Below, piece by piece: positions 2,593 to 59,627 of a DNA stretch of 64,000 bases (position 1 is its first letter; each line of letters begins with the position of its first letter). Made by a program: the position numbers and the translations under genes. This DNA comes from an uncultured delta proteobacterium (GTDB lineage: Bacteria > Desulfobacterota > Binatia > Binatales > Binataceae), in assembly GCA_963724765.1 (NCBI GenBank), contig CAVRVY010000004.1:672001-736000 (forward strand). The letters run 5' to 3'. The notes beneath the pieces were generated by a model. That model did not search any database and was not told where the DNA came from. It saw nothing but the letters and a program-made list of their open reading frames with translations.

Positions 2593-2608
2593 TGGCATGT
2601 TCCATGCT
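2593..2608 (+). promoter_or_regulatory. sigma54 -24/-12 promoter (DUF2267 gene)
   Basis: TGGCATGTTCCATGCT, GG-N10-GC, 28 nt before ATG 2637. Confidence 0.6.
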
Positions 2609-2636
2609 GAGCGTATTGATCAAGGGAGAGGGAACA

Positions 2637-3068
2637 ATGGATAAAAAGGCATTTTTCGAAAGGGTCGCTGGGCTTATGCGATGTGACGAGCATCGGGCTG
2701 AGTCGCTCACCTTCGCTGTGTTCCAGGAGCTTCGAGACAGTCTGACGTCGCGTGAGGCAGGCGACGTCGACGCCCAGCTGCCGGCCGGACTCAAGATACT
2801 ATGGGAAGCGCTCGACCGTCCGGGCAGGCATGTCCGCCGTGTGCATGAACCGCAGTTCGTCGGCGAGGTGCGGCTGATTGCGTCGCTGCCGGACGAAGCC
2901 GAAGCGGAACGCGCAGTGATCGCGGTCTTCGTCACGTTGCAGGAGCTGCTCGGCAGCCCGACCGGGATGGAGGGCGAGGCTTGGGACGTGATGAGCCAGT
3001 TGCCCAAGGACCTCAAGAAGCTTTGGATTAGTGCGCGCCAGCGCGCTGCTGAATTAGCGCAGGCTTAA
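2637..3068 (+). CDS. DUF2267 family protein
   Basis: Two repeats of AV(F)xxL..GEA..V..QLP typical of DUF2267; GGAG/GAGG RBS upstream. Confidence 0.8.
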   Translation: MDKKAFFERVAGLMRCDEHRAESLTFAVFQELRDSLTSREAGDVDAQLPAGLKILWEALDRPGRHVRRVHEPQFVGEVRLIASLPDEAEAERAVIAVFVTLQELLGSPTGMEGEAWDVMSQLPKDLKKLWISARQRAAELAQA

Positions 3069-3199
3069 GACGCGGTTTTCAGCCGATGTAGTTAATACTC
3101 CGACCAGGCAGAGCCATCTCGGCGTACGGCTGGACTTCATCCGGCGCGGCAGATTGGTGGATTGATTTCAGGCCATTCATCTCAATTGTGTTATTCTGT

Positions 3200-3275
3200 G
3201 CTGACTGCTCGGTCGCGTGCGCCAGGGCCGAGTCGTCCATGTGGGCGATGTCGGCGCCCAGGGTCAGATCGCGCT
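3200..3275 (-). pseudogene. Possible relic of P-type (Mg2+-type) ATPase cytoplasmic segment
   Basis: LTLGADIAHMDDSALAHATEQ resembles the GxEI.xMDD.AL segment preceding VFAR in P-type ATPases; coordinates approximate. Confidence 0.3.
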
Positions 3276-3324
3276 GGTCGTCAGGGGTCATCACCGGGCA
3301 AGGGCCCGATCCATCACGACCTTG

Positions 3325-6669: not shown

Positions 6670-6685
6670 TGGTGTGATCATTGCT
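6670..6685 (+). promoter_or_regulatory. sigma54 -24/-12 promoter (HPF-CSD gene)
   Basis: TGGTGTGATCATTGCT, GG-N10-GC with TTGCT -12 element. Confidence 0.55.
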
Positions 6686-6783
6686 TGCTTGTGGGCTCAT
6701 CAGGGTATCGCGGAAGTAACGATGCCGGTGCCCAGGTAGATGAAGAAGATGTTATCGCGCAAAAAGTGCGCTGAGGATGAGAC

Positions 6784-7329
6784 ATGCAACGCGATTTGCA
6801 AATCACCGCCCGCAATTTCACCTTGAATGCGGCCGCCGAAGCCGAAATCCGGGAAAAGGCCGCGAGACTTGAGCGCTATTACGAGCGTGGGCGTATCGGC
6901 GGTTGCCACGTCACCGTGGAAGGCGCCGTTGGCCATCGCCGCCATGGCGGTCCGTTCAAGGTGCGAATCGATCTAAGACTTCCGGGTGGCGAGTTGAGCG
7001 TTGATCGGCAGTCCGAGGATGACCTCGCAGTGGCGATTCGCGAGGCCTTCGACGCCGCGCGGCGCGAGCTGCAGGATTATGCCCGCAAGCAGCGGGGCGA
7101 CGTCAAGACTGTCGAGGCGCCGCCCCACGCGCGCGTGAGCAAACTGTTCCCACTCGAGGGGTATGGCTTTCTGACCACACCCGACAGCCGCGAACTTTAC
7201 TTTCATCGCAACAGCGTCCTAGGCGATGCGTTCGACAGGATGAAAATCGGTACGGAGGTCAGGTTCGCCGAGGAGATGGGTAATCAAGGGCCTCAAGCGA
7301 GCTCGGTCGCGATAGCCGGCAAATCCTGA
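6784..7329 (+). CDS. HPF/RaiA ribosome-associated protein with C-terminal cold-shock domain
   Basis: LQITARN..IREKAARLERY..CHVTVE..VRIDL..AIREAFDAARREL, followed by YGFL..YFHRNSV..GPQASSV. Confidence 0.9.
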   Translation: MQRDLQITARNFTLNAAAEAEIREKAARLERYYERGRIGGCHVTVEGAVGHRRHGGPFKVRIDLRLPGGELSVDRQSEDDLAVAIREAFDAARRELQDYARKQRGDVKTVEAPPHARVSKLFPLEGYGFLTTPDSRELYFHRNSVLGDAFDRMKIGTEVRFAEEMGNQGPQASSVAIAGKS

Positions 7330-8484: not shown

Positions 8485-8500
8485 TGGCGCGTTGCTTGCT
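8485..8500 (+). promoter_or_regulatory. sigma54 -24/-12 promoter (Hsp20 operon)
   Basis: TGGCGCGTTGCTTGCT, near consensus, 56 nt before ATG with GAGGAG RBS. Confidence 0.7.
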
Positions 8501-8556: not shown

Positions 8557-9024
8557 ATGGGAGCACTGTCACTGTGGAGGCCGTTTAGGGACCTCGAACG
8601 GCTGGCGAGAAGCTGGGAGTCGCGTTTCCCCAGCTTCTCTCAAGAATTCGAGGAAGCCGAGAAAGAGTTCGCCCCGCCGATTGAAAGCTACGTCAAGGAC
8701 GGCAATCTGCTGGTACGCGTCGACGTACCTGGGCTCGATCCCAAGGACATCGAAATCAACGTCCTGCAAAACGTCCTCACGATCAAGGGCGAACGCAAAA
8801 GCGAGAAGGAGGTCAAGCAGGAGAACTATTTGCGCCGCGAAGTCTCGTACGGCGCCTTCGAGCGGCGGATGAACTTGCCGGAGGGGGCAATGACAGACAA
8901 CGTCAAAGCCAACTTCAAGAACGGGGTGGTCGAGGTGACTATCCCGCTGGCCAAAGAGGTCGGGGCGAAGAAGATACCGCTCGAGATCGAGTCAGAAAAA
9001 AAGGCTGAACACGAAAAGAAGTAG
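8557..9024 (+). CDS. Hsp20/alpha-crystallin small heat-shock protein
   Basis: DVPGLDPKDIEI..LTIKGERK..RREVSYGAFERRMNLP..ANFKNGVVEVTIP. Confidence 0.95.
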   Translation: MGALSLWRPFRDLERLARSWESRFPSFSQEFEEAEKEFAPPIESYVKDGNLLVRVDVPGLDPKDIEINVLQNVLTIKGERKSEKEVKQENYLRREVSYGAFERRMNLPEGAMTDNVKANFKNGVVEVTIPLAKEVGAKKIPLEIESEKKAEHEKK

Positions 9025-9084
9025 GGCTGTCGGCAAGCGCGCAGCCCTCGAAAAGTGATTTTGACTCAAGGGGAGGCAACGACC

Positions 9085-9564
9085 GTGAAGGTAAAGGATT
9101 TGATGGCGATCGAAGTGAAGAGTTGTGCAACCTACAACACTCTGAACACGGCCGCGCAGGCTATGTGGGACAACGACATCGGCTGCGTCCCGGTCGTGGA
9201 CAGTGACCGTCGTGTCGTTGGAATGCTCACGGACCGCGATGTCTGCATGGCGGCCTATATTCAGGGCGTGCCGCTTACGGGCTCGCTGGTGACTAGCGCG
9301 ATGTCTAAGCAGGTGTTTTCCTGTGCGCCTGACGACGACATCGCGTCCGCAGAGAAGTCGATGCGCGAGAAGCAGGTCCGGCGCCTGGCGGTAATCGACA
9401 CGCAGGGGCGCCTGGCAGGCATCATTTCGCTCAACGATATCGCGCGTGAGGGTGAACGGGAGACCGAGTTTAAAAAGACTCGCGAGGTAAGCGATGCCGA
9501 AATCGCGCGCGTTATGGCCTCGGTCTGCGCCCCCCGCCACCGCATCATTGAAGCCGCGGCGTAA
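9085..9564 (+). CDS. CBS domain pair protein
   Basis: VKDLM..MWDNDIGCVPVV..GMLTDRD..MREKQVRRLAVID..GIISLNDI. Confidence 0.92.
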   Translation: MKVKDLMAIEVKSCATYNTLNTAAQAMWDNDIGCVPVVDSDRRVVGMLTDRDVCMAAYIQGVPLTGSLVTSAMSKQVFSCAPDDDIASAEKSMREKQVRRLAVIDTQGRLAGIISLNDIAREGERETEFKKTREVSDAEIARVMASVCAPRHRIIEAAA

Positions 9565-9660
9565 ACCGCCTGAGAACGGGTGGTGAAGTTTCCAGTGCGC
9601 CACCACGAGAGCAGGACCGCCAAGTCGGGTCCTGTTCCCGTGGGCCGCAGAGGAGGATTT

Positions 9661-9966
9661 ATGGTGGCCAATTACATAATGCTCACGAGGCTTTCACCCG
9701 AGGCGCTGACCCGTCCCGGAGCAGTCGCAAATCTCAACAAGAAGGTCGCAGAGCGCATTCGCCAGGAATGCCCTAGCGTAAAATGGCTCGCCAACTATGC
9801 CGTGCTCGGTCCATGCGATTATCTGGACATCTTCGAGGCGCCCGACGCCGATACGGCGACGCGAGTTGCGCTTCTCGTCCGATCCTTCGGGCACGCGACG
9901 ACTGAAACCTGGGTCGCGACGCCGTGGGACCGTTTCCTGAGCCTCGCTCAAGGTCTCAAAAACTAA
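9661..9966 (+). CDS. GYD domain protein
   Basis: YIMLTRLS..YAVLGPCDYLDIFEAPD..GHATTETW; AGGAGG RBS. Confidence 0.85.
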   Translation: MVANYIMLTRLSPEALTRPGAVANLNKKVAERIRQECPSVKWLANYAVLGPCDYLDIFEAPDADTATRVALLVRSFGHATTETWVATPWDRFLSLAQGLKN

Positions 9967-10041
9967 GCGCAGGGCCGCGCAGGGTCGTTACGGCGAGTCT
10001 ATTCCAAAGAGCGCAGAGAACACGCCATTTCAGATTTCAAC

Positions 10042-10773
10042 GTGGATAGAAGCGAAACCATCGTTAAAGAGGTCAGCGCGGCGCTGGAACACGATCCGCG
10101 CATAAGCTTCCACAAACACCCGTTAGAAATTGTCATCGACCCGGATGGCGTTCTCGTTCTTGAAGGTGAGCTTGAAAACATCGCTGCGAAGAAACTTGCG
10201 CTCGAGCATGCAGCCGCGGTCGGCGGCGTGAGCGGCATTGTCGACCGCCTCCGGATTACGCCTTCAACCCCGATGGGCGACGGTGAAATCCGCGATCATG
10301 TTCGCGATGCCCTGCTCGAAGAGCCTGCAATCAATAACTGCGGCATCCGGATGATGAATAGCGGCCGCTGGGAGATTTTCAGGGAGTCGCAGGTGATCAC
10401 GCCGCGCTGCTCGATCAACATAATGGTTGATGAGGGCGTTGTGACGCTGGACGGTGAAGTGAGCAGTCTCTCCCACAAACGACTTGCAGGAGTGTTGGCC
10501 TGGTGGGTGCCGGGCAGCTGCGATGTCGTCAATGGCCTCGAAGTGGTGCCCATACAGGAGGATAGCGACGACGAGATTGCGGAGGCGGTGAAACTGGTTT
10601 TGGAAAAAGACCCGCTGGTCAATGCCTATCGCATCCGCGTGACCGTTCGCACTGCCGTGGTCACGCTGGAAGGGCTTGTCGTCAATAAGGCCGAGGGCGA
10701 GATGGCTGAGATGGATGCATGGTACGTCTTCGGCGTCGACCGCGTTGTCAATCGGCTTGAACACGAGCGTTAG
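10042..10773 (+). CDS. Multi-BON domain protein (three BON domains)
   Basis: Repeated GVVTLxG...VPG/VGGV..VVNxL units. Confidence 0.88.
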   Translation: MDRSETIVKEVSAALEHDPRISFHKHPLEIVIDPDGVLVLEGELENIAAKKLALEHAAAVGGVSGIVDRLRITPSTPMGDGEIRDHVRDALLEEPAINNCGIRMMNSGRWEIFRESQVITPRCSINIMVDEGVVTLDGEVSSLSHKRLAGVLAWWVPGSCDVVNGLEVVPIQEDSDDEIAEAVKLVLEKDPLVNAYRIRVTVRTAVVTLEGLVVNKAEGEMAEMDAWYVFGVDRVVNRLEHER

Positions 10774-12926: not shown

Positions 12927-13606
12927 CAGCCGCCGCGCGGCGGCATGTAGAGGATGCGGTCGCGTGATTCCCGAGGGCGCGCCCTTCGTGCGCACGCGGT
13001 CATCTAGTCCTGCGCTGCGCAGGCGGGTTTCAGGGGCGAGGCGACTGCCGCCGCTTGCCAATTCAGGGATTCGGGCTGGTTTCGTTCTGTCCCGTTTTTG
13101 GCACGAGTGCCAGGATGATCTCGAAACCTTTATAAAACTGTGTGAATTTTCCCCCAACGAAGCGCGAATCGTCCGACAGGCTGAACCACGCGCGAATCTC
13201 AGGCACGAAGAGCGCTGCGACGAAGTTCAGCCAGCCGAAATCAGGTTTGATGTCGACTCGAGCCATCGTGCGTTCCAGCAGCGGAACGAACTCGCAGGCA
13301 GGCGGGAGAGCGCGTATATGTCGCGCCGACCTGCCAACGACTGAATGCAGCGCAGCGGTGACTTTTAAGGACCCATCCACCTTTGCGTCAGTGTTGCCGA
13401 TGAAATCAGGTCCGGACGTTTCGCAAACGCCAGAAGGTTTCTCATGGTAGGCTGGTGAGTTAGCCGCAGGCACACACATTGCTCTAAGCTGCGTGACGTA
13501 AGGCCAGTTTGTGCGAATACGAAATGATGGGACGCGAATGGATTTGTTTCAGCCAGAGTCCGTCTCGCGACCCACGGTAGACCATTCGCGTTAAGGAGCG
13601 ACGCTG

Positions 13607-13831
13607 ATGAAACCGATTGCATGGCTTGGTGCGCTGCTCGCTCTTCTGGGGATCCTGGGACTGGCAATCCCCGAATTTACAACGTCACGGACCAGAGACG
13701 TGGCAAAACTGGGGGGTCTCAAGATCCAGAGCACCGAGCAATCTACGCACGTGGTTCCCCAGGCTTTGAGCGCTGGCGCACTCGTCTTAGGCGTCATTCT
13801 TATCGGCGCAGGACTTTACCAGAGGCGCTGA
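13607..13831 (+). CDS. Small two-TM membrane protein (DUF3185-like)
   Basis: AAGGAG RBS; TM-[DVAKLG]-TM; paralog at 21126. Confidence 0.75.
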   Translation: MKPIAWLGALLALLGILGLAIPEFTTSRTRDVAKLGGLKIQSTEQSTHVVPQALSAGALVLGVILIGAGLYQRR

Positions 13832-14459: not shown

Positions 14460-14879
14460 ATGCCATCGATGCAAAAGCGGATCGCTCCATTCCTAGGCCT
14501 TTTGTTCTTGGCCGGCACTGCGGCCGCTGCAGGAGCCGACGACGTCGCGCTAGGACGACAAATCTATCTCGAACGTTGCGCGTCGTGCCATGGACTCACC
14601 GGCGAGGGTGATGGTCCCGTGGCGCCCGCGTTGACCACGCCGCCGGCCAACCTCCGCCGGCTTTCGGAACGTTTCGGAAATCCGCTGCCCGAGGACCAGG
14701 TCGCCCGCTTCATCGACGGCCGCGCCGAGGTCAAGGCTCACGGCACGCGCGACATGCCAGTATGGGGCGCACGCTTCTATGCCGAGACGCACAACGAGCG
14801 CGCGGTCCGTGCAATGATCGCTGAGCTCATCGCCTATCTGCAATCGATCCAGAGCGGTGCGCGCCACGCGCGCCGATAG
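14460..14879 (+). CDS. Monoheme c-type cytochrome
   Basis: Signal peptide, CASCH, IDGR...AHG.RDMPVWG. Confidence 0.9.
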   Translation: MPSMQKRIAPFLGLLFLAGTAAAAGADDVALGRQIYLERCASCHGLTGEGDGPVAPALTTPPANLRRLSERFGNPLPEDQVARFIDGRAEVKAHGTRDMPVWGARFYAETHNERAVRAMIAELIAYLQSIQSGARHARR

Positions 14880-14899
14880 CCGCCTCGCGTTGAGGGTGA

Positions 14900-16651
14900 T
14901 TACGCGCGCCAGCAGGCGCGCACGATCCATTTCCGCACTTCTTCCGCGACGAACACCACGGCCGCGAAGGGCAGAATGAAAAGCCACGCCCGGGGGCCGA
15001 TCGGCGCGGTTCCGAAGATGGAATTGCCGAGCGGCGTGTAGCCAATCAGCGCGACCAGTGCGACCTCGACTATCACTCCGCCCCAGATAAGCGGATTTTC
15101 GAGAAGCCCGGTCCCGCAAAGATGAGATTTTCCTCCACTTCCGCGCGCTGCCAGTGGTCCTCGAGCGGCCAGTAGGACATTGCGATGACCCGCAAGCCCT
15201 GCCCGGCCATCGCTTCCTGCGCCTCGCGAACTTTGGCGCGCGATCCGGAATCGAACGGGCGTATTTCGCCGTCGACCAGTATCCGGTCGCACAGCGGGAT
15301 GACCATCTCCGGCGCGCCCTTGCAAAAGAGCATCGGGCCCTCAGGCGTCGCATGCACCGTCGATAGCCGCATGCGGCTGACGTCGAAAGGAATCTCATCG
15401 AGTTTTTTGCAAGCCGGAAGCGCGGAGAGGAACCGCTCGGCCGTTTCAACCAGCGCGATTTCTATCGGATCGCCCAGCAGCACCTTCCGCCCCTGCTGGT
15501 CGCCTTCCCTCAGATCGTGGCACAGACTGGCGGTCATAAAGAAAGGCCGGTACAGCGCCGCGGTCTCTTGCCCAGCGCCGGGATTGAGCTGGCATTCCAG
15601 GCCCGCCCCCAGCCAGACGCGCCTTACCGTCATCCGGTTCTGCGTCAGCGTGCCGGTCTTGTCGGTGCAAATCACGGTGGTCGAGCCGAGCGTCTCGACC
15701 GATGGCAGGTAACGGATCAGAACGTGGCGTTTCGCCATTCGCTGTGTGGCCAGGACCAGCGCAAGCGTCAAAGTGGGCAACAGTCCCTCCGGCACCATCG
15801 CGACGATGATGCCGATGGCGAAGATGAAATCCTCCCAGAAGGGGACACCGAGGATGCGGCTGATCGCGAAAAAAATCAGTCCGATCGCCACCGCCAGGAT
15901 GCCGATCAAGCGGCTTAGGTACGCGATCTGCTCGCGCAAAGGAGAGACGGCTTCGCGGCCGGTCTGCGTCAGGTGAGCGATCTTGCCGAATTCGCAATGC
16001 ATGCCGGTGGCAAAGACCACCGCCCGGCCTTCTCCGGAGACCATCGAGGTGCCGGCGAGCAAGATGTTCTCGGCGTGGATTGTTTCCTCCTTGGCGGAGG
16101 GTCCCGCGATTCGAAGTTTGGAAAGCGATTCCCCCGGTGATCGTCGCGTCGTTGACGCGAACTCCGAAGGCCTCGACCAGGCGGCAATCCGCCGCAATGT
16201 TGTTCCCTTGCTCCAGGAGGATGATGTCGCCCGGGACGAGCCGGTCTGCGAGCAACCGGACCGCCTTACCATCGCGCAACACCTCGACCTGTTGCGGCAG
16301 CAGCCCGCGCAACGCGGCCAGCGTTCGTTCGACCCGGAATTCCTGCCAGAAGGAAAACAGCCCGCTGACCAGGATAACGGCCAGGATCGCGTAACCGATC
16401 TTCGCCATGCCATGACCCGGATCGCTCCATTCGGCCACAAAGGCCAAGCCCGCGGCGAGCCACAGGATCAGGGCGAAAAAGTGAGTGAACTCCTTCAGGA
16501 AGCGCAGCAGTATCGATTCGCGCGCGACTGCTTCCACCCGATTGAGGCCATACTCGCCGAGCCTGCGCAGGGCCTCGACGGATGAGAGCCCTTGCGGGCT
16601 ACTGTTGAGGCTAGCGATGGCATCGGCGGCAGAGAGCTGGTGAATCTTCAT
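14900..16651 (-). pseudogene. Cation-transporting P-type ATPase (type II), frameshifted and internally deleted
   Basis: GLSS.EA..RL..YG.N, PEGL, CTDKTGTLT, KGAPE; +1 G in TGES codons (16131-16135); jumps from ENLIFAG directly to C-terminal GLLENPLIW at ~15110. Confidence 0.88.
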
Positions 16652-17105
16652 CGGGGACGATTCGAAAGATTCGACGTGAGGTGGTGTGGCTGCCAGCGTC
16701 TCCCATGAAATTGGTACTCCCCCGCCATATCGACCGCTGGTCACAGCAAATAATGCGCCGGGGACGAACGAAGGGAAACTTCACGGCTGGAGCGGCTTTC
16801 CAAACACGATCTGGCTGTCAAAGTGCTGCTTGGCTAGAGACGCTTGTTCTCTCCGCCGACAGTGATCTCAGCCATCGCTACTAAGTAGTGCACAGATTCG
16901 CAAGGAAATTTTCACACGCCAGCCCGAGATTATTCTCAAGGCCGGCAGCGGAACATCTTTTATCGCGCGATCCAAAGAACCGAGAGTTAGAACGGACGCC
17001 GACTGGGTCAGCCAACCAGTTGCCGTCCAGACCCGCTTGATGCTCTAGACCGTAGCGCAAAAAAGCGCTTTCATCGAGATTGCCGTACCCGCAAATAGGA
17101 GGACG

Positions 17106-20502: not shown

Positions 20503-20710
20503 TGGTCTGCTCCCAATGCCCGTCAGATCATAGGTAGAGTCTTTGGTTGTTTTCCCCCGCAGGGGGCGGAATCAGTTTCTCCGTTGTGAGCTGTGCGAAC
20601 TCGACTGGTGTTAGTGCGCCGAGACTCGAATGGGGACGATGGTTGTAGTGCTCGCGCCAGGCTTCGATGGTCCCGCGGGCCTCGGCGAGGCTCAGGAGGC
20701 AGGCCATCGC
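20503..20710 (-). mobile_element. IS3-family (IS407-like) right-end remnant
   Basis: SLAEARGTIEAWREHYNHRPHSSLGALTP integrase C-terminus, then terminal IR (plus strand TGGTCTGCTCCCAA from 20503). Confidence 0.8.
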
Positions 20711-21033
20711 CCCTGAGCGCCGAAGTAGCCAAGGGCCCTTCGGATAGCGATGAAGCTCGCCGCCAAAGTCGCGATCGCGATGAGGCTCCTTATTACGAAA
20801 TTGCATCGGCCGTCGACTCCTTGACCCGGAATGCATTCGGAGATTCGGTCAGCTATGGGGTGAAGATCTTGCTATATCGGCAAGAATTACAGCCTGGCAA
20901 GGTGTCGCGATCGCGGCGAAAGACGATGGCCGAGAGCGAGTTCGCGAATAAAAAGCGCCGCAGCATGGCGTAAACTCGTCAGGTTTTCCCGCTTTGGCGT
21001 CGGCCGCGATATTCAGAAGGTTTGGAAATCCGT

Positions 21034-21049
21034 TGGCACGTTCTCCGCA
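21034..21049 (+). promoter_or_regulatory. sigma54 -24/-12 promoter (small membrane protein, possibly treY-treZ)
   Basis: TGGCACGTTCTCCGCA. Confidence 0.6.
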
Positions 21050-31322: not shown

Positions 31323-31329
31323 TTGTGGT

Positions 31330-34144: not shown

Positions 34145-34203
34145 CTCCGTCTTCTCCCAATAGAACCATCTAACGACAAGCTTTGCGCTTGCGCCGCGCT
34201 CGC

Positions 34204-38611: not shown

Positions 38612-43379
<4,768 letters not shown>

Positions 43380-43998: not shown

Positions 43999-44014
43999 AG
44001 CAATAGCTGTGCCG
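43999..44014 (-). promoter_or_regulatory. sigma54 -24/-12 promoter
   Basis: Minus strand CGGCACAGCTATTGCT; AT-rich region upstream. Confidence 0.7.
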
Positions 44015-44289
44015 AATTTTGTGCCATTAGCGATACATTGATTCTTGGTGCGCTTTACGGTGATTAATGTTGAGGATTAGCAGAATATTTTTTAATACAC
44101 AACGAATCAAGTTCGATTCGGTAAATTTTACATTACAATAAATTGTAGAAACTCGTTGTCGAATATTTCACTAACGGGAACTTTTGGACCAGCACGGCAC
44201 TGGTAGGTCCTCTCGTTCGCTCGAACGCGGCTGAATGGTGAGACGCTAGAGTAGGAACATTATACGAATACGAGCTCGGCGCCCTCGCC

Positions 44290-44382: not shown

Positions 44383-44598
44383 TTACGGGTTATAGGTCGT
44401 GGTCGAATGCTGCCGCACGCTTCCATCGTCGGACTGCGTGGTGGTACTGGTCGTGCTGGTCTCACCAGGCGGCTCCGAGGGCACCACCTGAGCCGGCGCT
44501 TCGCTGGTGGTGGTTCTGTGATAACTGAAGCATCCGCTCGCCAGAATCATTGAAAGGCCAGCAATAGCCAGAATCGTCTTGTGCATAACGTGTTGCAT
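44383..44598 (-). CDS. Small Thr/Pro-rich lipoprotein
   Basis: LASGC lipobox, GGAGGAGG RBS, ends STTTYNP. Confidence 0.72.
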   Translation of the reverse strand: MQHVMHKTILAIAGLSMILASGCFSYHRTTTSEAPAQVVPSEPPGETSTTSTTTQSDDGSVRQHSTTTYNP

Positions 44599-44688: not shown

Positions 44689-44704
44689 TGCAGTAGTCGT
44701 GCCA
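44689..44704 (-). promoter_or_regulatory. sigma54 -24/-12 promoter
   Basis: Minus strand TGGCACGACTACTGCA. Confidence 0.7.
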
Positions 44705-45121: not shown

Positions 45122-45544
45122 TCAATCGCGATGCTTGGAATCGGCTGGGGCGCTCGAAATCAGGCCGACGTGACGGCCGAACATCTGCCAAGCGCCATCG
45201 CGCCTGACCCATGCGTTCATATAACTGCAGAACAGCACCGTGGCGGCCGCAGGTCCTTCGAGTTGCGAGGTCTCGTTGCCAGTAGTGACAACAGTGTCGC
45301 CGTTTATCGTGCCTCGCAGAGTAAGCCGTATATAGGATCTCAAACGAAGCCGCCCATCGGCGATCACGCCGAGAAGTATTTTTTTGTCCGCGATCAGATT
45401 TGAGGTACTATTCACCAGTAAATCGTCAGACCATAGCGCGCTCAGGGCCGTAACGTCGGCGCGCAGCATCGCGTTTGCTTCTCTTTGTTCCAAATCCTTT
45501 ATTTCCTTCCAAATTTCCGGCTCAGACGATTCGACGTCAAACAT
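45122..45544 (-). CDS. NTF2-like/DUF4440 protein
   Basis: AMLRADVTALSALWSDD..GDTVVTTG..YMNAWVRRDGAWQ. Confidence 0.8.
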   Translation of the reverse strand: MFDVESSEPEIWKEIKDLEQREANAMLRADVTALSALWSDDLLVNSTSNLIADKKILLGVIADGRLRLRSYIRLTLRGTINGDTVVTTGNETSQLEGPAAATVLFCSYMNAWVRRDGAWQMFGRHVGLISSAPADSKHRD

Positions 45545-45640: not shown

Positions 45641-46039
45641 TCAGGTTGTCGACAGCGAACCATCGGAGTCTGCGCGACGCGCCAGTAGACGATCCATGAC
45701 GCGCAGGAGACGCTTCAAGTCGATAGGTTTTGCGATTAGGGCATCGGCATCGATCTTTGCCGAGTCCGCAAGCGCAGTCATGACCACGATCGGCACGGTC
45801 GCAAAAATCGGAAGCTTGGCGATTTCGGCACGAAACTCCCATCCGTCCATACCCGGCATCATCAGGTCGAGGATAATCAGATTCGGTGGCGGATGAGTGT
45901 CTAGGTATTCAAGCGCCTCGCGCCCGTCAAGGGCAGTCGCGACTGCGTATCCCTCGTACTCCAGGATCTGCGCGAGCGCTGCAACGGCGTCGGCATTGTC
46001 GTCGACGACCAGGACGGTAGGACCGGCTTTCAAAGTCAT
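45641..46039 (-). CDS. Single-domain response regulator
   Basis: VLVVDD..IILDLMMPGMDGWEF..VVMTA..KPID. Confidence 0.92.
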   Translation of the reverse strand: MTLKAGPTVLVVDDNADAVAALAQILEYEGYAVATALDGREALEYLDTHPPPNLIILDLMMPGMDGWEFRAEIAKLPIFATVPIVVMTALADSAKIDADALIAKPIDLKRLLRVMDRLLARRADSDGSLSTT

Positions 46040-46236: not shown

Positions 46237-47212
46237 TCATACCTCGATCCGGCCGGCGGCGTTTCTCCGGTATTCCCTGGCCAGGTCTTTGAGCCATGAA
46301 GGGCGGGATTTCAAAGTTTGTAGAGTATCGATGAGGCGCTCCGGTTCTCCGAGGTCGCTCCACTGAACGTCGTCGACCATCTGCACTGCGAGGTTTGACG
46401 GCGCCTTGGAAAGTACCTGTTCGGAAAACCCGACCGTCTCCAGCTTTCCAAACATAGCATCAGAGGCTTGTTCTTGTCGCCAGATTGCACTCGACTCAGG
46501 CCGTCGTTAAAGCGGCGGACCAACTCTGGCGCATGCTCCGCGATCATCGCTTCAAGCACCGAGGCGCGGGCGACTACGACAGCACTGTTCCAGAGGCACC
46601 CGCCGGCAAGGAGAGTGCGGGCCAACTCCCAGCGGGGCTTTTCCCAAAATCGTTTGACCCGGAAGAGCTTGGGCGTCCACGACGACACCCGCGCCGCCGG
46701 CTCAATCCATCCGTACGACGTTTCGGCCTTATCCGGTCTAATGCCAAGCAGCACTGAGAGCGCCGGATGCTCGTCAACCGCATCGAATGCGCGCTCGACC
46801 TGCCGCATGAACCGGACGTCGTCGCTGACGTAATGGTCCGAAGGAAAAATGGCTATGGTAGTGTCGGGCCCGAGACTCTTGGCTCTAAGGATTCCATAAA
46901 GAATGGCCGGCGCAGTTCCGCGGTCGCATGGCTGCGCAACGATTTGCGAACGCCGCAGGTCTCCCAAAAGCGGCTCGTAGAAGCGACGATGGCTCTGCTT
47001 CACGACGATGAAGGAGCGCTCGACCGGTACCAGTTGGGCCACCCGGTTCCTCGTGTTTTCCAACCACGTTACGCCGTCCATCATCGGACAGAACTGCTTC
47101 GGCACATCGTCCTGACCGGTGATAACCGAGTAACGGAGCTTATACGAAGTCCCTCGCCGCCGGCAAGAATTACCGCAGCGCGAGCCGATGAGGTGGAAGT
47201 TGATGAGCGCAT
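46237..47212 (-). pseudogene. Mannose-1-phosphate guanylyltransferase-like nucleotidyltransferase, two frameshifts
   Basis: AGGAGG RBS, ATG 47212, AVILAGGEG.R | shift ~47125 | PKQFC..RGTAPAI..FPSDH..YGWIEP..FWEKP..LWNS | shift ~46474 | FSEQVL..WSDLGEPER. Confidence 0.85.
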
Positions 47213-47235: not shown

Positions 47236-47251
47236 AGCAACGAGGGTGCCA
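47236..47251 (-). promoter_or_regulatory. sigma54 -24/-12 promoter
   Basis: Minus strand TGGCACCCTCGTTGCT, consensus match. Confidence 0.7.
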
Positions 47252-48609: not shown

Positions 48610-48873
48610 AGGTTTTTTCAGCGTACGAAGGGATTCGTATGAGCGCTAAATTAAGATTAAGGATCGCGTGAGTCAATAAAAATTGGGGTCTTTTGTAATT
48701 TTTTATCAATCTGAAACAATTTCAAATAATAGACTTAAACAAGCTTTTAAGCAAGCTTTTATTAGCTTTACCATCATTCTGCTCTTCCTCAGGTAATTGC
48801 CGTTAAAAAAAAGGCCAAAGCCCCTCCTACGCGGTCGAAGCGGAAGTCATCATCACTTGGCCCATCGGCACGG

Positions 48874-53508: not shown

Positions 53509-53524
53509 TGGCATGACAATTGAA
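53509..53524 (+). promoter_or_regulatory. sigma54-like promoter (variant -12)
   Basis: TGGCATGACAATTGAA (GA instead of GC). Confidence 0.45.
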
Positions 53525-53579: not shown

Positions 53580-53927
53580 ATGAAAGTACACAAGATAGCT
53601 GCGGTCGCGGCAAGCGCGATACTGCTCGCGTTAGCTGGGTGCACCAAGCAAAACGTTTTAACCCATAAACTCGTAGCCACGGGCGGCGAGCATTCGGTAG
53701 CCCTCTATCCCGATGAAGCGACCTTCCTCAAGGTTTCGCATAAGGCACAACAAGGCGGAGTGAGCGGCATGGTGGGTAACGCGCAGGAGGACCTATCGGC
53801 AAAGAAGATCGAGGATCAGACTCCGGTCAACATCATCTCAAGTGATAGCAATGGTACCGAAGTCGAGATCGTTGAGGGTCCAATGAAAGGCACGGCGGGC
53901 TTCGTCGCGAGTCAGAACGTAAACTGA
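53580..53927 (+). CDS. Hypothetical lipoprotein
   Basis: AAGGA RBS, LAGC lipobox, C-terminal GPMKG..GFV SH3-like strand pattern. Confidence 0.7.
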   Translation: MKVHKIAAVAASAILLALAGCTKQNVLTHKLVATGGEHSVALYPDEATFLKVSHKAQQGGVSGMVGNAQEDLSAKKIEDQTPVNIISSDSNGTEVEIVEGPMKGTAGFVASQNVN

Positions 53928-54042: not shown

Positions 54043-54058
54043 TGGCATGCCTGATGCG
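54043..54058 (+). promoter_or_regulatory. sigma54 -24/-12 promoter (DUF3309)
   Basis: TGGCATGCCTGATGCG. Confidence 0.6.
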
Positions 54059-54113: not shown

Positions 54114-54269
54114 ATGGCCAGAACTGTCTTAATCGTAATACTGATTCTCTTGCTACTCGGAGCACTGCCTGCTTGGCCTTATAGTGCAGGTTGGGGATAC
54201 TATCCCGCGGGAGGGTTAGGTGGGATCATCATACTTTTAATCATTCTCGCGCTGTTGGGTGTCATTTGA
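54114..54269 (+). CDS. DUF3309 family small membrane protein (not in ORF track)
   Basis: MARTVLIVILILLLLGALPAWPYSAGWGYYPAGGLGGIIILLIILALLGVI. Confidence 0.9.
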   Translation: MARTVLIVILILLLLGALPAWPYSAGWGYYPAGGLGGIIILLIILALLGVI

Positions 54270-54308: not shown

Positions 54309-54324
54309 TGGCATACTGATTGCG
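54309..54324 (+). promoter_or_regulatory. sigma54 -24/-12 promoter (Gly-rich protein)
   Basis: TGGCATACTGATTGCG. Confidence 0.68.
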
Positions 54325-54372: not shown

Positions 54373-54831
54373 ATGCGATGCTACAAACGCGCATCGGGTT
54401 TTATTGTCGGCGGCGCTCTCACAATCGCGCTTAGCGCGTTCGCTCCACTTGTTTATGCACAAGGCGCAGCAGGCGGCGGTGCTGGTGGCGGTGGTGCTGG
54501 TGCGGCTGGAGGGGCAATGGGTGGCGGCGGAGGTGCTGCCGGTGGCACGGGCAGCGGAACCATGGGGATGGGTGGAGGTGCAAACACCGGGACTGGCGCA
54601 ACTTCGCCCGGTAGCGGCGCTGTCCCGTCCACCGGCAACCCGGGTTCGGCCGCCGAGGGCTTTACAGGAAATGCCCCGACTACTTCAGCCCCAGGCGCTC
54701 CGACTGGTCCGGGCGCTGGCGGTTCCGGCATGGGCAGCATGAGAAGCAATCCGATCAACCCGTCCGGTCCGACGAATCCGAGCAATCCGGAATCCGGATC
54801 GTCGGCCGGTTCGAGCAGCAATAACCAATAG
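54373..54831 (+). CDS. Secreted Gly/Ser/Pro-rich low-complexity protein
   Basis: GAGGAGG RBS, signal peptide ending VYA|Q, disordered G-rich body. Confidence 0.75.
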   Translation: MRCYKRASGFIVGGALTIALSAFAPLVYAQGAAGGGAGGGGAGAAGGAMGGGGGAAGGTGSGTMGMGGGANTGTGATSPGSGAVPSTGNPGSAAEGFTGNAPTTSAPGAPTGPGAGGSGMGSMRSNPINPSGPTNPSNPESGSSAGSSSNNQ

Positions 54832-55283: not shown

Positions 55284-55772
55284 TTAGGGGTTTCCCGCTT
55301 CTTGGGGCTGATTTGACGTCGCTGGCGGCTTGGACACTTTGACTGGAGCCACGCCCTTGTGGGTGATGCCGATTTTTTCGGCGGCATGTTGAGAGAGATC
55401 GAGACTGCGGCCCGGAACGAAAGGGCCGCGGTCGTTGATTCGCACCTTTACTGCTTTTCCGTTTTCGGGGTTGGTAACCTTGACTACCGAGCCGATCGGG
55501 AGAGTCTTGGAAGCTGCGGTCAGTGCCTTCGGGTTGTAGGCTTCACCGCTGGTTGTCTTTTTGCCGGCCATACCCGGCCCATACCAGGATGCCTTAGCGA
55601 GATGGCTGACCGGAGTTGACGATGCGATCGGCCGGATCGGTTGTGCGACGATTGGCGCGGCCGGCGGTGCGGGTTCCGGGACGGATTGGGGAGCGCATGA
55701 TAGATAGATTGTCGAAGCTATTCCGACGACCATCGTGCTCAAGATTCGGGGCGCTAGGCTTCGGGTAAACAT
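55284..55772 (-). CDS. rlpA: Septal ring lytic transglycosylase RlpA family
   Basis: ASWYG..GKKT.SGE..LTAA..TLP.GS.V.VTN..NG..V.VRINDRGPF. Confidence 0.9.
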   Translation of the reverse strand: MFTRSLAPRILSTMVVGIASTIYLSCAPQSVPEPAPPAAPIVAQPIRPIASSTPVSHLAKASWYGPGMAGKKTTSGEAYNPKALTAASKTLPIGSVVKVTNPENGKAVKVRINDRGPFVPGRSLDLSQHAAEKIGITHKGVAPVKVSKPPATSNQPQEAGNP

Positions 55773-55792
55773 CAATCTTGCGCGCTCCGCAA

Positions 55793-55987
55793 TTACCTTA
55801 GCGGCGGGATACGTATAGGGATGTGCCCTACCAGCCCGAACACCTGTAAAACCCAGATCAATACAACTACGAACACCACTACGTTTAAAAGACTCTTGAT
55901 TCCGCCTGCCATCGGGACATAGGTATTCAGCAGCCACATTATCAACCCGACCACAATCAGCACTAGGACTATGTCGATTAAAGTCAT
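55793..55987 (-). CDS. Thivi_2564-like small membrane protein
   Basis: LIVVGLIMWLLNTYVPMAGGIKSLLNVVV..WVLQVFG. Confidence 0.82.
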   Translation of the reverse strand: MTLIDIVLVLIVVGLIMWLLNTYVPMAGGIKSLLNVVVFVVVLIWVLQVFGLVGHIPIRIPPLR

Positions 55988-56048: not shown

Positions 56049-56300
56049 CTATCCTGCTATATAGTCACCGTTGTCGTCGCGAGTCAGTTCGGACAATCGT
56101 CGCTCGATTGCATCGACGGCTTGCTTCAGCGCAGTGATCATTTGGCCACTTGACGGCCCACCCCACAGCGCATCACCTCGAGCGAATGAAATCTCATTCT
56201 TAAGCCGTATCCTCTCCCATTGGCAGTACATAAGCGGCATGCTGGCGATTTTCTCGATTTCAGGGATCGCCACTTGTTGCGTTGCATTTAGCTCCCTCAT
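56049..56300 (-). CDS. Hypothetical protein
   Basis: GAGG RBS before ATG 56300; helical composition; may extend to 56465. Confidence 0.45.
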   Translation of the reverse strand: MRELNATQQVAIPEIEKIASMPLMYCQWERIRLKNEISFARGDALWGGPSSGQMITALKQAVDAIERRLSELTRDDNGDYIAG

Positions 56301-56531
56301 GTTATTGCCTCGCAATTCCTTCATAAGGAGGAAAAGAACAAGCAAACCCCATGCCCCGAGAGCCAACCCGGAAAATGCGTATGCTAATAACGGAAAAACT
56401 GACGCTCTATGATATCGGACTAGGCCTGTCGGTATTTTTTGCAGAGAACCGCAGAATTCTGACATTGCCGGTTGCGCTTGTTCCGCGGGGCCCGTATTGC
56501 TCCGAAGTGGCCAGATCTAAAAAGAGAATCT

Positions 56532-58028
56532 TCACTGAACGGGTGTCGGAGTTGCTCTCGGTGTCCGAACGGGCTTCGGCGGCGGAGTCGGAGTTGTGCT
56601 CGGTGCTCGAACGGGGGTCGGCGGCGGAGTCGTGCTCGGTGCTGGAACGGGGCTGGGCGGTGTCGGAGTTGTGCTCGGTGTTAGCGGTGTTGGAGTTGGG
56701 CTCGAAGCGGACGGCGTTGGAGTTGGGCTCGGTGTTGACGGTGTTGGAGTTGGGCTCGGCGTTGGAGCGGGGGTCGGCCGGATCCAGGCGGCCCCCGCAG
56801 GTACCCAGATTAGAGTCGCTGTTTGTCCTGCACAGGATTGGGCCATTTCACCAGTGGCTTTGAACTTCCCGCTCGCCGGGTCGTAAAGCTCAGCGCTGGC
56901 AAGTGATTTTGAGGTTGGGGTCCATCCGCCTGCGATCAGCACCCTGCCATCGGGCAGCAGCGTCGCGGAGTGTCCAAAGCGACTGACGCTCATGTGCACT
57001 GTTGTCACAAACCGCTGAGTGACTGGATCGTATATCACCGCTGAATTGTCGTCGTGTCCGCCGGCGATCAGCACGCGGCCATTCTTGAGCAACGTGGCTG
57101 TGTGACCGGCGCGGCTCACCTTCATCTTTGGCCCGGCTCTAAATGCCCCGGTCTTCTGGTCGTATAGTTCTGTGGTGTCTAGCGCTGAGCTCCTCGCATA
57201 TGGACTGCCGCCGACAATGATGACGCGCCCGTCAGGCAGCAGGGTGGCCGTGTGGTAGATGCGGTTCTGACGCATCCTGCCAGTCGGAGTGAACTTGGCG
57301 GTGGCCGGATCATAAAGTTCGGCCGGGCGCGGTCCGCCGCCGCAGATTAGAACCTTGCCATTGCGCAGTAGCGTCGCGGTTTGTCCATAGCGGCTCTCGG
57401 CCATCTCGCCAGTCGCGGCGAAGGTATGTTTTTTTGGATCATACAGTTCCGCGACGCTGTCACCGCCTCCCACGACCAGCACTTTGCCGTTCCTTAGCAG
57501 GGTAGCCGTGGGTTCGTCTCGCGGCGTTATCATTCTGGCCGTCGTGCTGAAATGTCCGTCGCGGGAATTCAGGATCTCAGCCGAGGAAAGAATCCATGGC
57601 ATCGCCGGACCGGGAAACGACACCAGGGGCACGAGCACCGTGTCGACCCCGCCGACAATCAGTACCTTGCCATCGGGCAGGATCGCTGCGGCGTGGCGGT
57701 CCCGATGCGCCGTCATTGGCTTGGCGAGTACGAATTTGCCGGCGGTGGGATCGTAAATTTGCGCGGTGTCCAGAACCGCCGGGCTCTCGCCGGTCGGAGC
57801 GTTTACCGTTCCCGTGCCGCCCGCGATCAAGACCACCGGTCTGAGGGTTGGGGTCGGTTTAGGCGTAGGGGTGGCCGGCGTAGGCGACGGGGTGGGCCTT
57901 CGCGCATGCCGCGCATGCCTCTTATGACGTGCCGCGTTGGCGCCTGAGATCGGGATCGCGAGTAGCACTGCCGCCGCGGCGAGAGACACCAGCCAAAGCA
58001 TGAGATTCGACCTGGCCGTGGCAGTCAT
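56532..58028 (-). CDS. Secreted kelch/galactose-oxidase-type beta-propeller with Pro/Thr-rich tails
   Basis: Signal peptide; about 7 HTATLL.DG.VLIAGG..AELYDP repeats; PTPS-rich C-terminus. Confidence 0.88.
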   Translation of the reverse strand: MTATARSNLMLWLVSLAAAAVLLAIPISGANAARHKRHARHARRPTPSPTPATPTPKPTPTLRPVVLIAGGTGTVNAPTGESPAVLDTAQIYDPTAGKFVLAKPMTAHRDRHAAAILPDGKVLIVGGVDTVLVPLVSFPGPAMPWILSSAEILNSRDGHFSTTARMITPRDEPTATLLRNGKVLVVGGGDSVAELYDPKKHTFAATGEMAESRYGQTATLLRNGKVLICGGGPRPAELYDPATAKFTPTGRMRQNRIYHTATLLPDGRVIIVGGSPYARSSALDTTELYDQKTGAFRAGPKMKVSRAGHTATLLKNGRVLIAGGHDDNSAVIYDPVTQRFVTTVHMSVSRFGHSATLLPDGRVLIAGGWTPTSKSLASAELYDPASGKFKATGEMAQSCAGQTATLIWVPAGAAWIRPTPAPTPSPTPTPSTPSPTPTPSASSPTPTPLTPSTTPTPPSPVPAPSTTPPPTPVRAPSTTPTPPPKPVRTPRATPTPVQ

Positions 58029-58067
58029 TTCTTTGCTCCGCGATGCGTCGTCGCACGCGGCCCATCG

Positions 58068-59429
58068 CTATTCTTCGGCCGATGCGCCATCCGTTTGCGG
58101 CTCTTGTCGAAAATTCTTCGCGCTGGCCCACGCCTCTTCCTTCGCCGCGACTTCCAGCGGGAGTCCGCGCGTCTCGTCAACGAAAGTTCCGAAAATGGCG
58201 GCGCTGGGGACGCCGATCAGCGCCAGGCAGCGGATCACATTGGTAAGGCCGCCGAGCGGCCCGATTAATGTTGCGATCATGACCTGCGCCAGCATCGAGA
58301 ATGCGGCGGCGGTGATCCCCTGCCATCCGATCATCGTGGTGCGCAGCCCGGCTGGGAACAATTCGGTCGCGGCCGAGTTCGCCCCGACGGTCAACACTCC
58401 GGAGGCGATTTTGAACCAGCAATAGGCGGCAAGGAGGAAGGTTAAAGGCCAGGTCACGCCGTTGGGCGGGCCCCAGTAGAAGGCAAATGCTCCGAACCAG
58501 GCGGCGCCGCCCACGTACGTCACCGTCGGCACGCGGCCGAACCGGTCTGAGGTCCATGCGCCTATCGGAAACCCGAGCATCCCGAGGACCATGCCGGCGA
58601 CGATCACGGAACTCGCCTTTTGCGGCGAAAGTCCGATTATCGAAACCGCATCAAAATAGAGCCAGCCGTTGACTGCGCTACCGGCAATCGTGTCGAGCGC
58701 GGCGCACACCAGCAACGCGATCGCGCGCCGCCGGTAGAGCGGATGAAAGATGTCGTAAAAGTGGCTGCCAGAAACGGACCTCGTCGACGCCAGCCGCGCC
58801 CATCGCGAATCGACCGGGAGCATCCGTGCCAGCGGGAACACCAGCCCGATTCCCACAATGCAAGGCGCCAGCAGCCATCGCCACGAATATTCCCACTGCA
58901 GCAGGAACGGAATCACGATATAGCCGAGCACACCGCCAATAGCACTGGCGCAGGCCGCAAACGCCTGTCCGCGCGCCCGCTGCTCGATGGGTAGCTCTTC
59001 GGCAAGCAGGACGATCGCGGACGAAACCGAACCGCCAAGCAAGGCGGAAATCAAAATCTCGAACAGGGCGAATGACCCCGGATGGGGCGCCATGGCGGCT
59101 CCTGCCGCACAAACCGGTGCCAGGACGAGACTGGAGAGAATTATTCGCCGCCTGCCGACCCGATCCGCGAGCCGGGCCAAAATGAGCGCGCCGAACGCCG
59201 AAAGCGACATCCAGGCGAATAGTTCCGCCAGTTTCGCCTGGTCCAGAGCGAAGCTTTTAGCAATCCACGGCGACGCCACGCCCACGACGGAAAGGCTATA
59301 ACCCTGATAGACCAGGAGGATGACGATCGCGGTAATGATCTTAACCGCGCCTGAGGAGCGCCGAGCGTCATGAACGCGCTCGGCATCGGCGCGAATATTT
59401 TGATCTCCAATCCCCGTCGACGCCATCAC
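58068..59429 (-). CDS. MFS transporter
   Basis: LADRVGRR motif A, SDRFGR, ELFPAGLR, ETRGLPLE; about 12 TMs. Confidence 0.92.
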   Translation of the reverse strand: MMASTGIGDQNIRADAERVHDARRSSGAVKIITAIVILLVYQGYSLSVVGVASPWIAKSFALDQAKLAELFAWMSLSAFGALILARLADRVGRRRIILSSLVLAPVCAAGAAMAPHPGSFALFEILISALLGGSVSSAIVLLAEELPIEQRARGQAFAACASAIGGVLGYIVIPFLLQWEYSWRWLLAPCIVGIGLVFPLARMLPVDSRWARLASTRSVSGSHFYDIFHPLYRRRAIALLVCAALDTIAGSAVNGWLYFDAVSIIGLSPQKASSVIVAGMVLGMLGFPIGAWTSDRFGRVPTVTYVGGAAWFGAFAFYWGPPNGVTWPLTFLLAAYCWFKIASGVLTVGANSAATELFPAGLRTTMIGWQGITAAAFSMLAQVMIATLIGPLGGLTNVIRCLALIGVPSAAIFGTFVDETRGLPLEVAAKEEAWASAKNFRQEPQTDGASAEE

Positions 59430-59611
59430 AGCTCTCGCGAGCAGTCTCTCCGGTTACGCGAGAACCATGCCAGTTCCGCGACACCCAGCCGGGAGGCGGT
59501 TGTCGATGGTCGTTTCCGATATCGGTTAGGGCTCGACGTTCTCGTGCGTTCCGGGTGTTGGGAGAGCCAAACCGGAGCTAAGGTTTCGTCACATAACAAG
59601 ACAGAACCCAA

Positions 59612-59627
59612 AGGCATACCCATTGCT
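59612..59627 (+). promoter_or_regulatory. sigma54 -24/-12 promoter (ABC-GT4-debranching operon)
   Basis: AGGCATACCCATTGCT, 59 nt before ATG 59687. Confidence 0.65.

Follow-up and report, generated by a model that had tools for sequence, protein, structure and literature searches.

A conserved, unusually dense island of predicted sigma-54 promoters before stress-survival genes in an uncultured member of the Binataceae

Sigma-54 control of single stress systems is well established, as for psp, zra and ibpB in E. coli. CsbD/YjbJ and BON/OsmY proteins, trehalose synthesis, small heat-shock proteins and hibernation factors are known as outputs of the RpoS, SigB and EcfG responses. To our knowledge, these three factors cover few phyla, and we know of no described switch for the survival programme of most uncultured soil bacteria. 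Judged by layout and gene families, the characterised system nearest to the locus described here is NmpRSTU of Myxococcus xanthus. In the available portions of the reports on this system, NmpR is an NtrC-like, autoregulated protein fed by a kinase relay, with sigma-54 promoters before its own and the kinase operons (PMC11841059; PMC6211767), and its regulon, all of it sigma-54 dependent, comprises a CBS protein, a USP, a P-type ATPase with a cbb3 oxidase, and HemN with a hemerythrin (PMC11841059). The subject of this work is a 64-kb stretch of DNA (C4:672001-736000, hereafter the window, meaning the whole stretch analysed) from the 5.4-Mb, four-contig genome bin, 97% complete, of an uncultured member of the Binataceae. 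An initial annotation of the window had listed 14 sigma-54-type boxes and read them as a general-stress and desiccation regulon served by its own activator. As far as comparison of DNA can tell, the window belongs to a conserved, unusually dense island of predicted sigma-54 promoters before survival genes, in a genome without a recognisable RpoS.

The density of the island was measured against a gene map that combined Pfam-supported open reading frames (ORFs) in the window with the calls of a home-made, crude dicodon gene caller. Boxes were scored with a position weight matrix of 112 training sites, all outside the window, iterated from a seed consensus of the YTGGCAC-N5-TTGCW type; after iteration the genome's own sigma-54 consensus was YGGCAY-N5-WTGCT. 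The seed had 153 matches genome-wide, 61 of them intergenic and co-oriented with the next gene (a class that makes up 6.2% of strand positions) and 76 in coding sequence (83.7%). Matrix matches of at least 12 bits numbered 120 in co-oriented intergenic, 73 in other intergenic and 153 in coding sequence, or 179, 66 and 17 per Mb of strand positions, so that the density in co-oriented intergenic space is about ten-fold that in coding sequence throughout the genome. The 34 intergenic regions of the window (11.7 kb) held 11 co-oriented and no anti-oriented matches at this threshold. Dinucleotide shuffles of the same regions gave 0.48±0.68 matches with a maximum of 4, and none of 300 shuffles reached 11, which bears out the expectation of the initial annotation that a matrix scan would exceed shuffled intergenic sequence. 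When 64-kb windows were slid over the genome, the mean was 1.4 co-oriented matches and the ten highest counts (9-11) all fell at C4:640-768 kb, those of 10-11 at C4:640-760 kb. The stretch of C4 containing the window is thus the densest sigma-54 region of the genome; the dense zone runs from about C4:638 to 748 kb (about 110 kb), and the window is its core, not the whole of it.

All 14 boxes of the initial annotation were found where it had placed them, intergenic by the gene map and co-oriented with the next gene. GG-N10-GC is present in 13 of the 14, the exception being the box at 53509 with GA at -12. The distance from box to start codon is mostly 55-110 nucleotides (nt), with about 200 nt for the activator gene and 620 nt for the kinase operon. 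No enrichment appeared when loose consensus matches were counted throughout the window: TGGCAC-N5-TTGC with up to two mismatches occurred 73 times against 63.9±9.0 in shuffled sequence, and GG-N10-GC 967 times against 944±29. The claim therefore rests on the position, orientation and quality of the sites.

Conservation was followed in 16 genomes of the same genus, in which syntenic stretches were located and the region upstream of each ortholog was examined. The best box of the window (CGGCACAATTGTTGCT, 31054-31069, plus strand, 22.2 bits) stands 70 nt before the CsbD gene (31140-31322) and is present in 10 of 10 genus orthologs, at -73 to -90; in the alignment of 11 sequences its GG and TTGC are invariant and the spacer and flanks variable. 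Retention was likewise complete for the box of the Hsp20-CBS-GYD-BON operon (8485-8500, plus strand, 12.4 bits; Pfam-supported genes at 8557-10773), kept in 4/4 orthologs at -67 to -79, and for that of the NTP-transferase (47236-47251, minus strand, 15.8 bits), an exact TGGCAC-N5-TTGC with no mismatches, kept in 5/5 orthologs at -76 to -85. Behind the latter lie the NTP-transferase (46311-47168), REC (45641-46039) and DUF4440 (45122-45544) genes. A box that the initial annotation had not listed (56341-56356, minus strand, 15.0 bits), before a 91-residue ORF (56049-56324, hereafter orf56049) and an RlpA-like DPBB gene (55284-55937), was kept in six of six orthologs. For the ABC-GT4-debranching operon, the box (59612-59627, plus strand, 16.3 bits) was recovered in nine of ten orthologs by the matrix and in the tenth (G012) by alignment; it precedes an ABC exporter (59735-61582), a GT4 gene (61667-62842) and a debranching-enzyme-like gene (62839 onward). 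The activator box (36363-36378, minus strand, 12.5 bits) was found in 7/10 orthologs, and the leader box of the kinase operon (43999-44014, minus strand, 17.9 bits), as CGGCAYRRCTRTTGCT, in five other genomes. The DUF3309 box (54043-54058, plus strand, 7.8 bits; gene at 54114-54269) was retained in six of eight orthologs, where TGGCACGCATGATGCA scores 9.7-13.7 bits. The DUF2267 box (TGGCATGTTCCATGCT, 2593-2608, plus strand, 18.0 bits), 58 nt before its Pfam-supported gene (2667-3068), occurs at the same place in two of the three homologs in relatives, and the box (54309-54324, plus strand, 12.8 bits) before a Gly-rich, secreted-looking protein (54404-54742) in two of four aligned relatives. 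The GG and GC doublets and the distance between them are unchanged in as many as 11 orthologous promoters, and the spacer and flanks vary; the boxes are kept at the same distance in relatives with drifting flanks.

Three low-scoring boxes are among the best conserved. The variant box at 21034-21049 (TGGCACGTTCTCCGCA, plus strand, 2.3 bits) has CGCA as its -12 region; TTGGCACG-N5-CGCA is kept in all seven orthologous regions with variable flanks, and downstream of it come a small membrane ORF (21132-21356), treY (21445-24384) and treZ (24395-26275). An earlier result that treY had no box (in eight orthologs, the 900 nt upstream had no match reaching 9 bits) was superseded by this alignment. The box at 44689-44704 (TGGCACGACTACTGCA, minus strand, 7.6 bits), before a 71-residue ORF (44383-44598), is kept as GGCAC-N5-NTGC in 7/7 orthologous regions with sequence. 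The variant at 53509-53524 (TGGCATGACAATTGAA, plus strand, 2.2 bits), with GA for GC at -12 and a 111-residue ORF (53592-53927) behind it, is kept as GGCAYGACAATTGAA in 8/8 orthologs, again with variable flanks. The initial annotation was right to list all three, and the matrix threshold undercounts real sites. Twelve of its 14 sites were retained in genus relatives; the remaining two fared less well. The weak candidate before the HPF gene (TGGTGTGATCATTGCT, 6670-6685, plus strand, 7.7 bits) is kept as GGTGYGATCATTGCT in three aligned sequences from two close relatives only, G005 and G001, and three HPF orthologs had no match of at least 8 bits upstream. The gene itself (6784-7329) encodes an S30AE domain fused to a C-terminal cold-shock domain. 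The box at 30022-30037 (minus strand, 12.4 bits), before a GAF-HK-REC-PAS kinase (27016-29913), is unconfirmed, its surroundings being unalignable to five orthologous regions. Beside it, between the kinase and a REC gene, lie three tandem copies of a 22-23-nt unit (30056-30128) without counterpart in five relatives. A further intergenic, co-oriented box absent from the initial list (13468-13483, plus strand, 15.8 bits) precedes a 74-residue ORF (13607-13831).

Nine box-less genes served as controls (E2, CHAD, pyruvate kinase, Prs, DksA, the histidine kinase (HK) at 47467, Kelch, MFS and GT4), and no box of at least 12 bits was found in 2-10 orthologs of each; weaker matches of 8-11.8 bits occurred in seven of the nine rows. 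The distant boxes upstream of BON and DPBB belong to the promoters of the operons in which these genes lie, those of Hsp20 and orf56049. CheB failed as a control, for its orthologs in 4/4 relatives have a strong box. In these relatives the CheB/CheR-kinase operon carries TGGTAYGGTCATTGCT (17-20 bits) at -120 to -150; the corresponding region here (48610-48873) has no box and no similarity to that of the relatives.

The genome encodes the machinery that such promoters would use. A single rpoN match was found, a 522-residue ORF with a glutamine-rich N-terminal region I and an intact ARRTVAKYR box, as the wiring proposed by the initial annotation implies. PF00158 gave 31 matches at E <= 0.001, of which about 27 are read as true activators by score, one of 95 bits and the three weakest (20-31 bits) being set aside. 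Eleven matches to the sigma-70 family include two RpoD-like proteins, one RpoH-like protein below the equivalog cut-off and several of ECF size. No RpoS equivalog was found in the genome, a result that does not extend to EcfG/PhyR and SigB, for which no specific search was made; the best TIGR02394 match, to an RpoD-like frame of 614 residues, reached 284.5 bits where the cut-off is 378.7. No Rfam family reached its gathering score within the window.

The genes behind these promoters are largely of families associated with survival. Conserved sigma-54-type promoters stand before CsbD, Hsp20-CBS-GYD-BON, DUF2267, the small ORF with treYZ, NTP-transferase, DUF3309 and ABC-GT4-debranching, so that the part of the initial annotation that saw stress genes wired to sigma-54 is upheld. 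The window contains DUF2267, HPF fused to the cold-shock domain, the Hsp20 operon, Prs, a DksA-like protein and cytochromes c. TreY and TreZ (both above their NCBIfam equivalog cut-offs), CsbD, DUF748, the activator, four histidine kinases and two single REC proteins are also present, together with the CheB/CheR-kinase pair, NTP-transferase, DUF3309, small secreted proteins, the RlpA-like protein and ABC-GT4-debranching. The flanks add a second Hsp20 with GroEL and USP, CBS proteins, PolX, a hemerythrin, a four-BON protein, PPK2 and phosphoglucomutase, and many of these genes, the hemerythrin among them, lie behind boxes; phosphoribosyltransferases and an AAA_33 kinase occur in the island and flanks as well. 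Genome-wide, five of the seven Hsp20 paralogs are behind boxes of at least 12 bits. Taken together, the most likely explanation is an island of about 110 kb in which some 25-30 survival operons are expressed from sigma-54 (-24/-12) promoters served by several activators.

Several features of the DNA itself may be recorded here. The segment 3199-12926 (CHAD, pyruvate kinase, HPF, Hsp20 operon, Prs, DksA and cytochrome c) has 93-95% DNA identity to G005:C2, and the rest of the window about 70-87% identity to relatives; this likeness suggests a recent exchange between lineages. An IS1595-type transposase (L082:1913-2605, minus strand) lies at the left edge of the island, and an integrase-core (rve_3) fragment (20528-20836, minus strand) just upstream of the treY promoter region. 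The G+C content falls to 52-55% at 30-36 kb and 44-46 kb of the window. PPK2 (L084:13779-14623) is spread over two adjacent ORFs, which cover profile positions 5-113 and 138-224.

The same gene content can be read in another way. The desiccation label of the initial annotation was inferred from gene content, and the same genes would suit a programme of hypoxia or dormancy just as well. The DosR regulon of Mycobacterium tuberculosis includes Hsp20, USP, a CBS pair, a hibernation factor, a CtpF-like ATPase and a phosphoribosyltransferase. With the same sigma-54 wiring, the island could therefore be a dormancy kit for hypoxia or energy depletion, a counterpart of the DosR and NmpR regulons, and we hold this to be a serious possibility, if not a probable one. 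Hsp20, CBS pairs, USP, the hibernation factor and two Ca/Mg-type P-type ATPases in the island and flanks speak for it, as do the phosphoribosyltransferases, the AAA_33 kinase, the cytochromes c and the hemerythrin behind a box. In the available text on NmpR, its regulon overlaps with the island in CBS, USP, P-type ATPase and hemerythrin (PMC11841059). Against this, TreYZ, CsbD, BON and the operons for envelope sugars speak for osmotic or water stress, and both P-type ATPase genes are split across frames. These genes (14553-16744, minus strand, and 17871-20440, plus strand; Cation_ATPase_N/C, E1-E2 and HAD) each extend over two or three overlapping frames and look frameshifted, or affected by assembly errors. 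The window kinases have no haem or globin sensor domain by Pfam, and no globin or protoglobin domain of the NmpU sensor type occurs among the Pfam matches of 74 window and 54 flank ORFs. Allowing one mismatch, the NmpR site GCGCA-N5-TGCGC occurs 15 times in the window (9.5 expected), never upstream of a box. Its only intergenic match is an exact palindrome, GCGCAAAAAGTGCGC (6757-6771), 13 nt before the HPF start and downstream of the box at 6670; it is conserved in G001 and G005 and may be a leader hairpin.

Returning to the reading of an island with several activators, one candidate regulator is an NtrC-family sigma-54 activator in the middle of the window (34772-36166, minus strand; Pfam REC, Sigma54_activat, AAA_lid_14 and HTH_8). 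The initial annotation had described it as GAFTGA-intact, and the motif is present at residues 220-225 together with the phospho-acceptor Asp55, Walker A GESGTGKE and HTH_8. Its best solved relatives are NtrC1/NtrC4, and it falls below the cut-off of every named NCBIfam equivalog. Upstream of it lie two hybrid kinases (36521-43379, minus strand), with the Pfam architectures REC-PAS-HK-REC (36521-38611) and poly-HAMP-GAF-HK-REC (38601-43379, 1592 residues). The second has about 7-9 tandem HAMP units of 276 nt (92 residues), and by eye it is read as soluble, its N-terminus being free of a hydrophobic segment. This poly-HAMP kinase is reminiscent of the fungal group III osmosensing kinases. The 1592-residue kinase stands between leader promoter and activator in only three genus genomes; in G004, G006 and G016 the leader promoter is close to the activator.

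The promoters of the activator and of the kinase operon have an upstream element in common. The genome contains AAATYTTACA exactly five times. Two of these copies belong to this pair of promoters, at -104 from the activator box and -118 from the kinase-leader box, where the conserved elements are AAATTTTACAA (36472-36482) and TGTAAAATTT (44123-44133). The TGTAAAA element is kept in 8/8 box-bearing activator promoters of the genus, twice as a variant, and in 6/6 leader promoters, about 100-120 nt upstream, with TGTAAGA in G005. Among window promoters, conserved TGTAAAA is common only to these two, which suggests autoregulation; this is the one activator link that we consider reasonably supported.

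A second activator of the island has no receiver or sensor domain. It consists of about 58 residues followed by AAA+ and helix-turn-helix domains, with GAFSGA in place of GAFTGA, and it is encoded 11 kb upstream of the window beside the Hsp20-GroEL-USP and CBS genes (C4:659745-660977; L083:7748-8977). Among its full-length relatives, both copies of this genome (G000) and that of G010 have an Hsp20 gene no more than 4 kb away; in G011 the distance is 9.7 kb. A 19.6-bit box (C4:660927-660942, minus strand) falls inside the first 50 nt of the called activator ORF, and the second Met codon of this ORF follows 13 nt after it. Translation may in fact begin at that Met, and the transcript would then be autoregulated and nearly leaderless.

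Upstream of the boxes, conserved blocks are present at most promoters, different in each, and as a common site none has secure statistical support. CsbD has CTTTCAAGCG..CTGAAAAAC, the activator AAATYTTACAA and DUF3309 GTAATAAACGCCCTGTACTATTTGCA; the ABC promoter has a 12-bp perfect palindrome, TCCGATATCGGT (59500-59520 region), about 105 nt upstream and then GCTCGACGWTCTCGTG. The palindrome is conserved in all 11 aligned genomes, with one change in G012, and a related block, TTTCCGAWAT, occurs upstream of the orf56049 promoter. A search of k-mers and dyads in 27 island against 132 other promoters gave nothing beyond multiple testing, the footprints of nine promoters had no common conserved 7- or 8-mer, and gapped 7-mers taken by sub-island reached at best p ~1.5e-5, short of significance for the roughly 25,000 patterns scanned. 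No inverted repeat was common to three or more of 17 left-hand and Hsp20-type promoters. Three single candidates were also discarded: GAGCCATC, present in 5/195 promoters against 2.6 expected; CCAWYGGAG, in 5/201 (p = 0.15); and the CsbD palindrome TTTCA-N7-TGAAA, unique to that promoter. The genome G012 had seemed to offer a natural experiment, with the ABC box lost together with the activator, and this proved void, since the box is kept by alignment and a full-length activator homolog exists. That genome keeps the ABC, DUF2267 and Hsp20 promoters, and its activator homolog is 61% identical against 83-91% in island-bearing genomes.

It is therefore unlikely, in our judgement, that the island is one regulon with all promoters driven by the single central NtrC-type activator, as the initial annotation had proposed. 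The activator is intact and central, it lies with kinases, and it has its own sigma-54 promoter, all of which would suit such a regulon. A TGNAAAA-type element occurs at 6/10 central promoters against a background of 7-9%, and it is conserved in orthologs of five of them (CsbD, NTP-transferase, orf56049, activator and kinase leader). CsbD and a close activator ortholog are found in the same 10 of the 16 genus genomes, which may reflect linkage only; the two activator relatives inspected outside the genus, 68% (L003) and 57% (L004) identical, had no other island genes within 10 kb. Opposed to a single regulon are the absence of TGNAAAA from all 13 left-hand promoters, the lack of a conserved 7- or 8-mer in the nine footprints and the different conserved blocks upstream of the ABC, DUF3309 and Hsp20 promoters. 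The genome moreover has some 27 activators, the island has a second one, and contig C3 encodes a paralog 85% identical to the window activator, which is preceded by a box of its own and differs in the region upstream. This part of the initial annotation is thus not supported beyond autoregulation.

Some observations also weigh against the preferred reading of many survival operons on sigma-54 promoters with several activators. No activator-to-promoter link is statistically secure; TGNAAAA was defined post hoc and ranks second (p ~7e-5) among about 25,000 patterns; and the receiver-less activator is not adjacent to Hsp20 in G001, G012 and G007. Two conserved sites have a noncanonical -12, CGCA (21034) and GA (53509), which makes their use by sigma-54 uncertain. 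Genome-wide, 1/14 USP and 5/14 CBS genes are behind boxes, and 0/2 HPF homologs at 12 bits or more, and therefore sigma-54 does not cover all stress genes. Gene starts were taken from the crude caller, and no RNA run was found to contain positions 30800-36500 of the window. It is nevertheless very improbable that the boxes arose as matches by chance or serve a factor different from sigma-54: the loose counts not above shuffles and the two atypical -12 regions would allow it, whereas 11 co-oriented and no anti-oriented matches against 0.48 in shuffles, the ten-fold density excess of co-oriented intergenic over coding sequence, the invariant GG/GC at fixed spacing in orthologs, and the presence of rpoN and many activators all oppose it.

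We propose the following mechanism for the island. Sigma-54 RNA polymerase would wait at each promoter in a closed complex and fire only once an activator ATPase, bound about 70-170 nt upstream, remodels that complex, with several activators rather than one sharing the promoters. Phosphate would probably reach the window activator from the two hybrid kinases, the co-operonic soluble poly-HAMP/GAF one and the REC-PAS one. Most likely the activator drives its own and the kinase-operon promoters, giving positive feedback, and possibly also those of the TGNAAAA-bearing neighbours CsbD, NTP-transferase, orf56049 and orf44383. The receiver-less, PspF-like activator is the best candidate for the chaperone promoters, and for further promoters, among them that of ABC-GT4 with its palindrome, different activators are probable. 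Water stress, hypoxia and energy depletion are candidate input signals. The output would be a protective state of low activity, with chaperones, CsbD, BON, the ribosome hibernation factor, trehalose and envelope sugar polymers. More tentatively, sigma-54 and a small team of activators may have taken over the role of RpoS, SigB or EcfG in this lineage as a dormancy switch, a proposal that we regard as possible and far from assured. Such a switch would be all-or-none because sigma-54 promoters are silent without an activator and the regulator is self-amplifying. Under a takeover of this kind, the receiver-less activator would read protein-folding stress for the chaperone operons, and the NtrC-type regulator water or energy stress for the CsbD, trehalose and envelope operons.

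Survival genes that better-studied bacteria usually place under other stress sigma factors stand here behind predicted sigma-54 promoters, and the island offers a testable alternative. It has about 16 mapped candidates for promoters, two for activators and further ones for sensor kinases, and all these parts can be transferred to a surrogate host. That three low-scoring boxes are among the best conserved also indicates that matrix thresholds miss real sites, and sigma-54 wiring of survival genes may be widespread and under-described. In the portions of the literature available, sigma-54 promoters are predicted by a 2025 survey for GroEL, IbpA and DnaK-type chaperone genes of both Bacteroidota and Planctomycetia and, in the latter group, also for USP genes (PMC12316311); a Desulfovibrio activator, DVU3305, is filed under 'general stress response' (PMC4641369). 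A word search of the main text of the survey, supplementary tables not covered, found no CsbD (COG3237), trehalose or hibernation factors (PMC12316311), and the available portions of the two sources do not describe a clustered island with several activators (PMC12316311; PMC4641369). Our literature search, which likewise did not cover supplementary tables, found no paper in which CsbD, Hsp20 and trehalose genes form a sigma-54 island.

Compared with known systems, the island overlaps with the RpoS, SigB and EcfG responses in the families of its outputs and differs from them in having promoters of the -24/-12 type, which need ATP-driven activators. It is similar to NtrBC, AtoSC and ZraSR in its REC-AAA+-HTH_8 regulator with GAFTGA, in having kinases in the same operon and in the sigma-54 promoter before the regulator's own gene. 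The kinases of the island are, in contrast, soluble hybrids, one with about nine HAMP units and a GAF domain, and its targets would be stress-survival genes, whereas those of the three systems are nitrogen, acetoacetate and zinc genes. PspF resembles the second activator in being receiver-less; the island protein differs in its score (239.8 bits against a pspF equivalog cut-off of 443.55), in GAFSGA and in its Hsp20, GroEL, USP and CBS neighbours, and no match to the PspA family was found in the island flank. DosR (DevR) of Mycobacterium tuberculosis overlaps in gene families and works with the GAF-haem kinases DosS and DosT; GAF-containing kinases are present in the island too. DosR is, however, a sigma-70 activator acting at a DosR box, while the island is predicted to use sigma-54 and its activators, and no regulator of the NarL/LuxR type (GerE/LuxR helix-turn-helix) was found in the window or flanks. 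NmpRSTU, the nearest of these systems, differs from the island in size and scope, the island being far larger and adding CsbD, Hsp20, BON, TreYZ and sugar-polymer operons.

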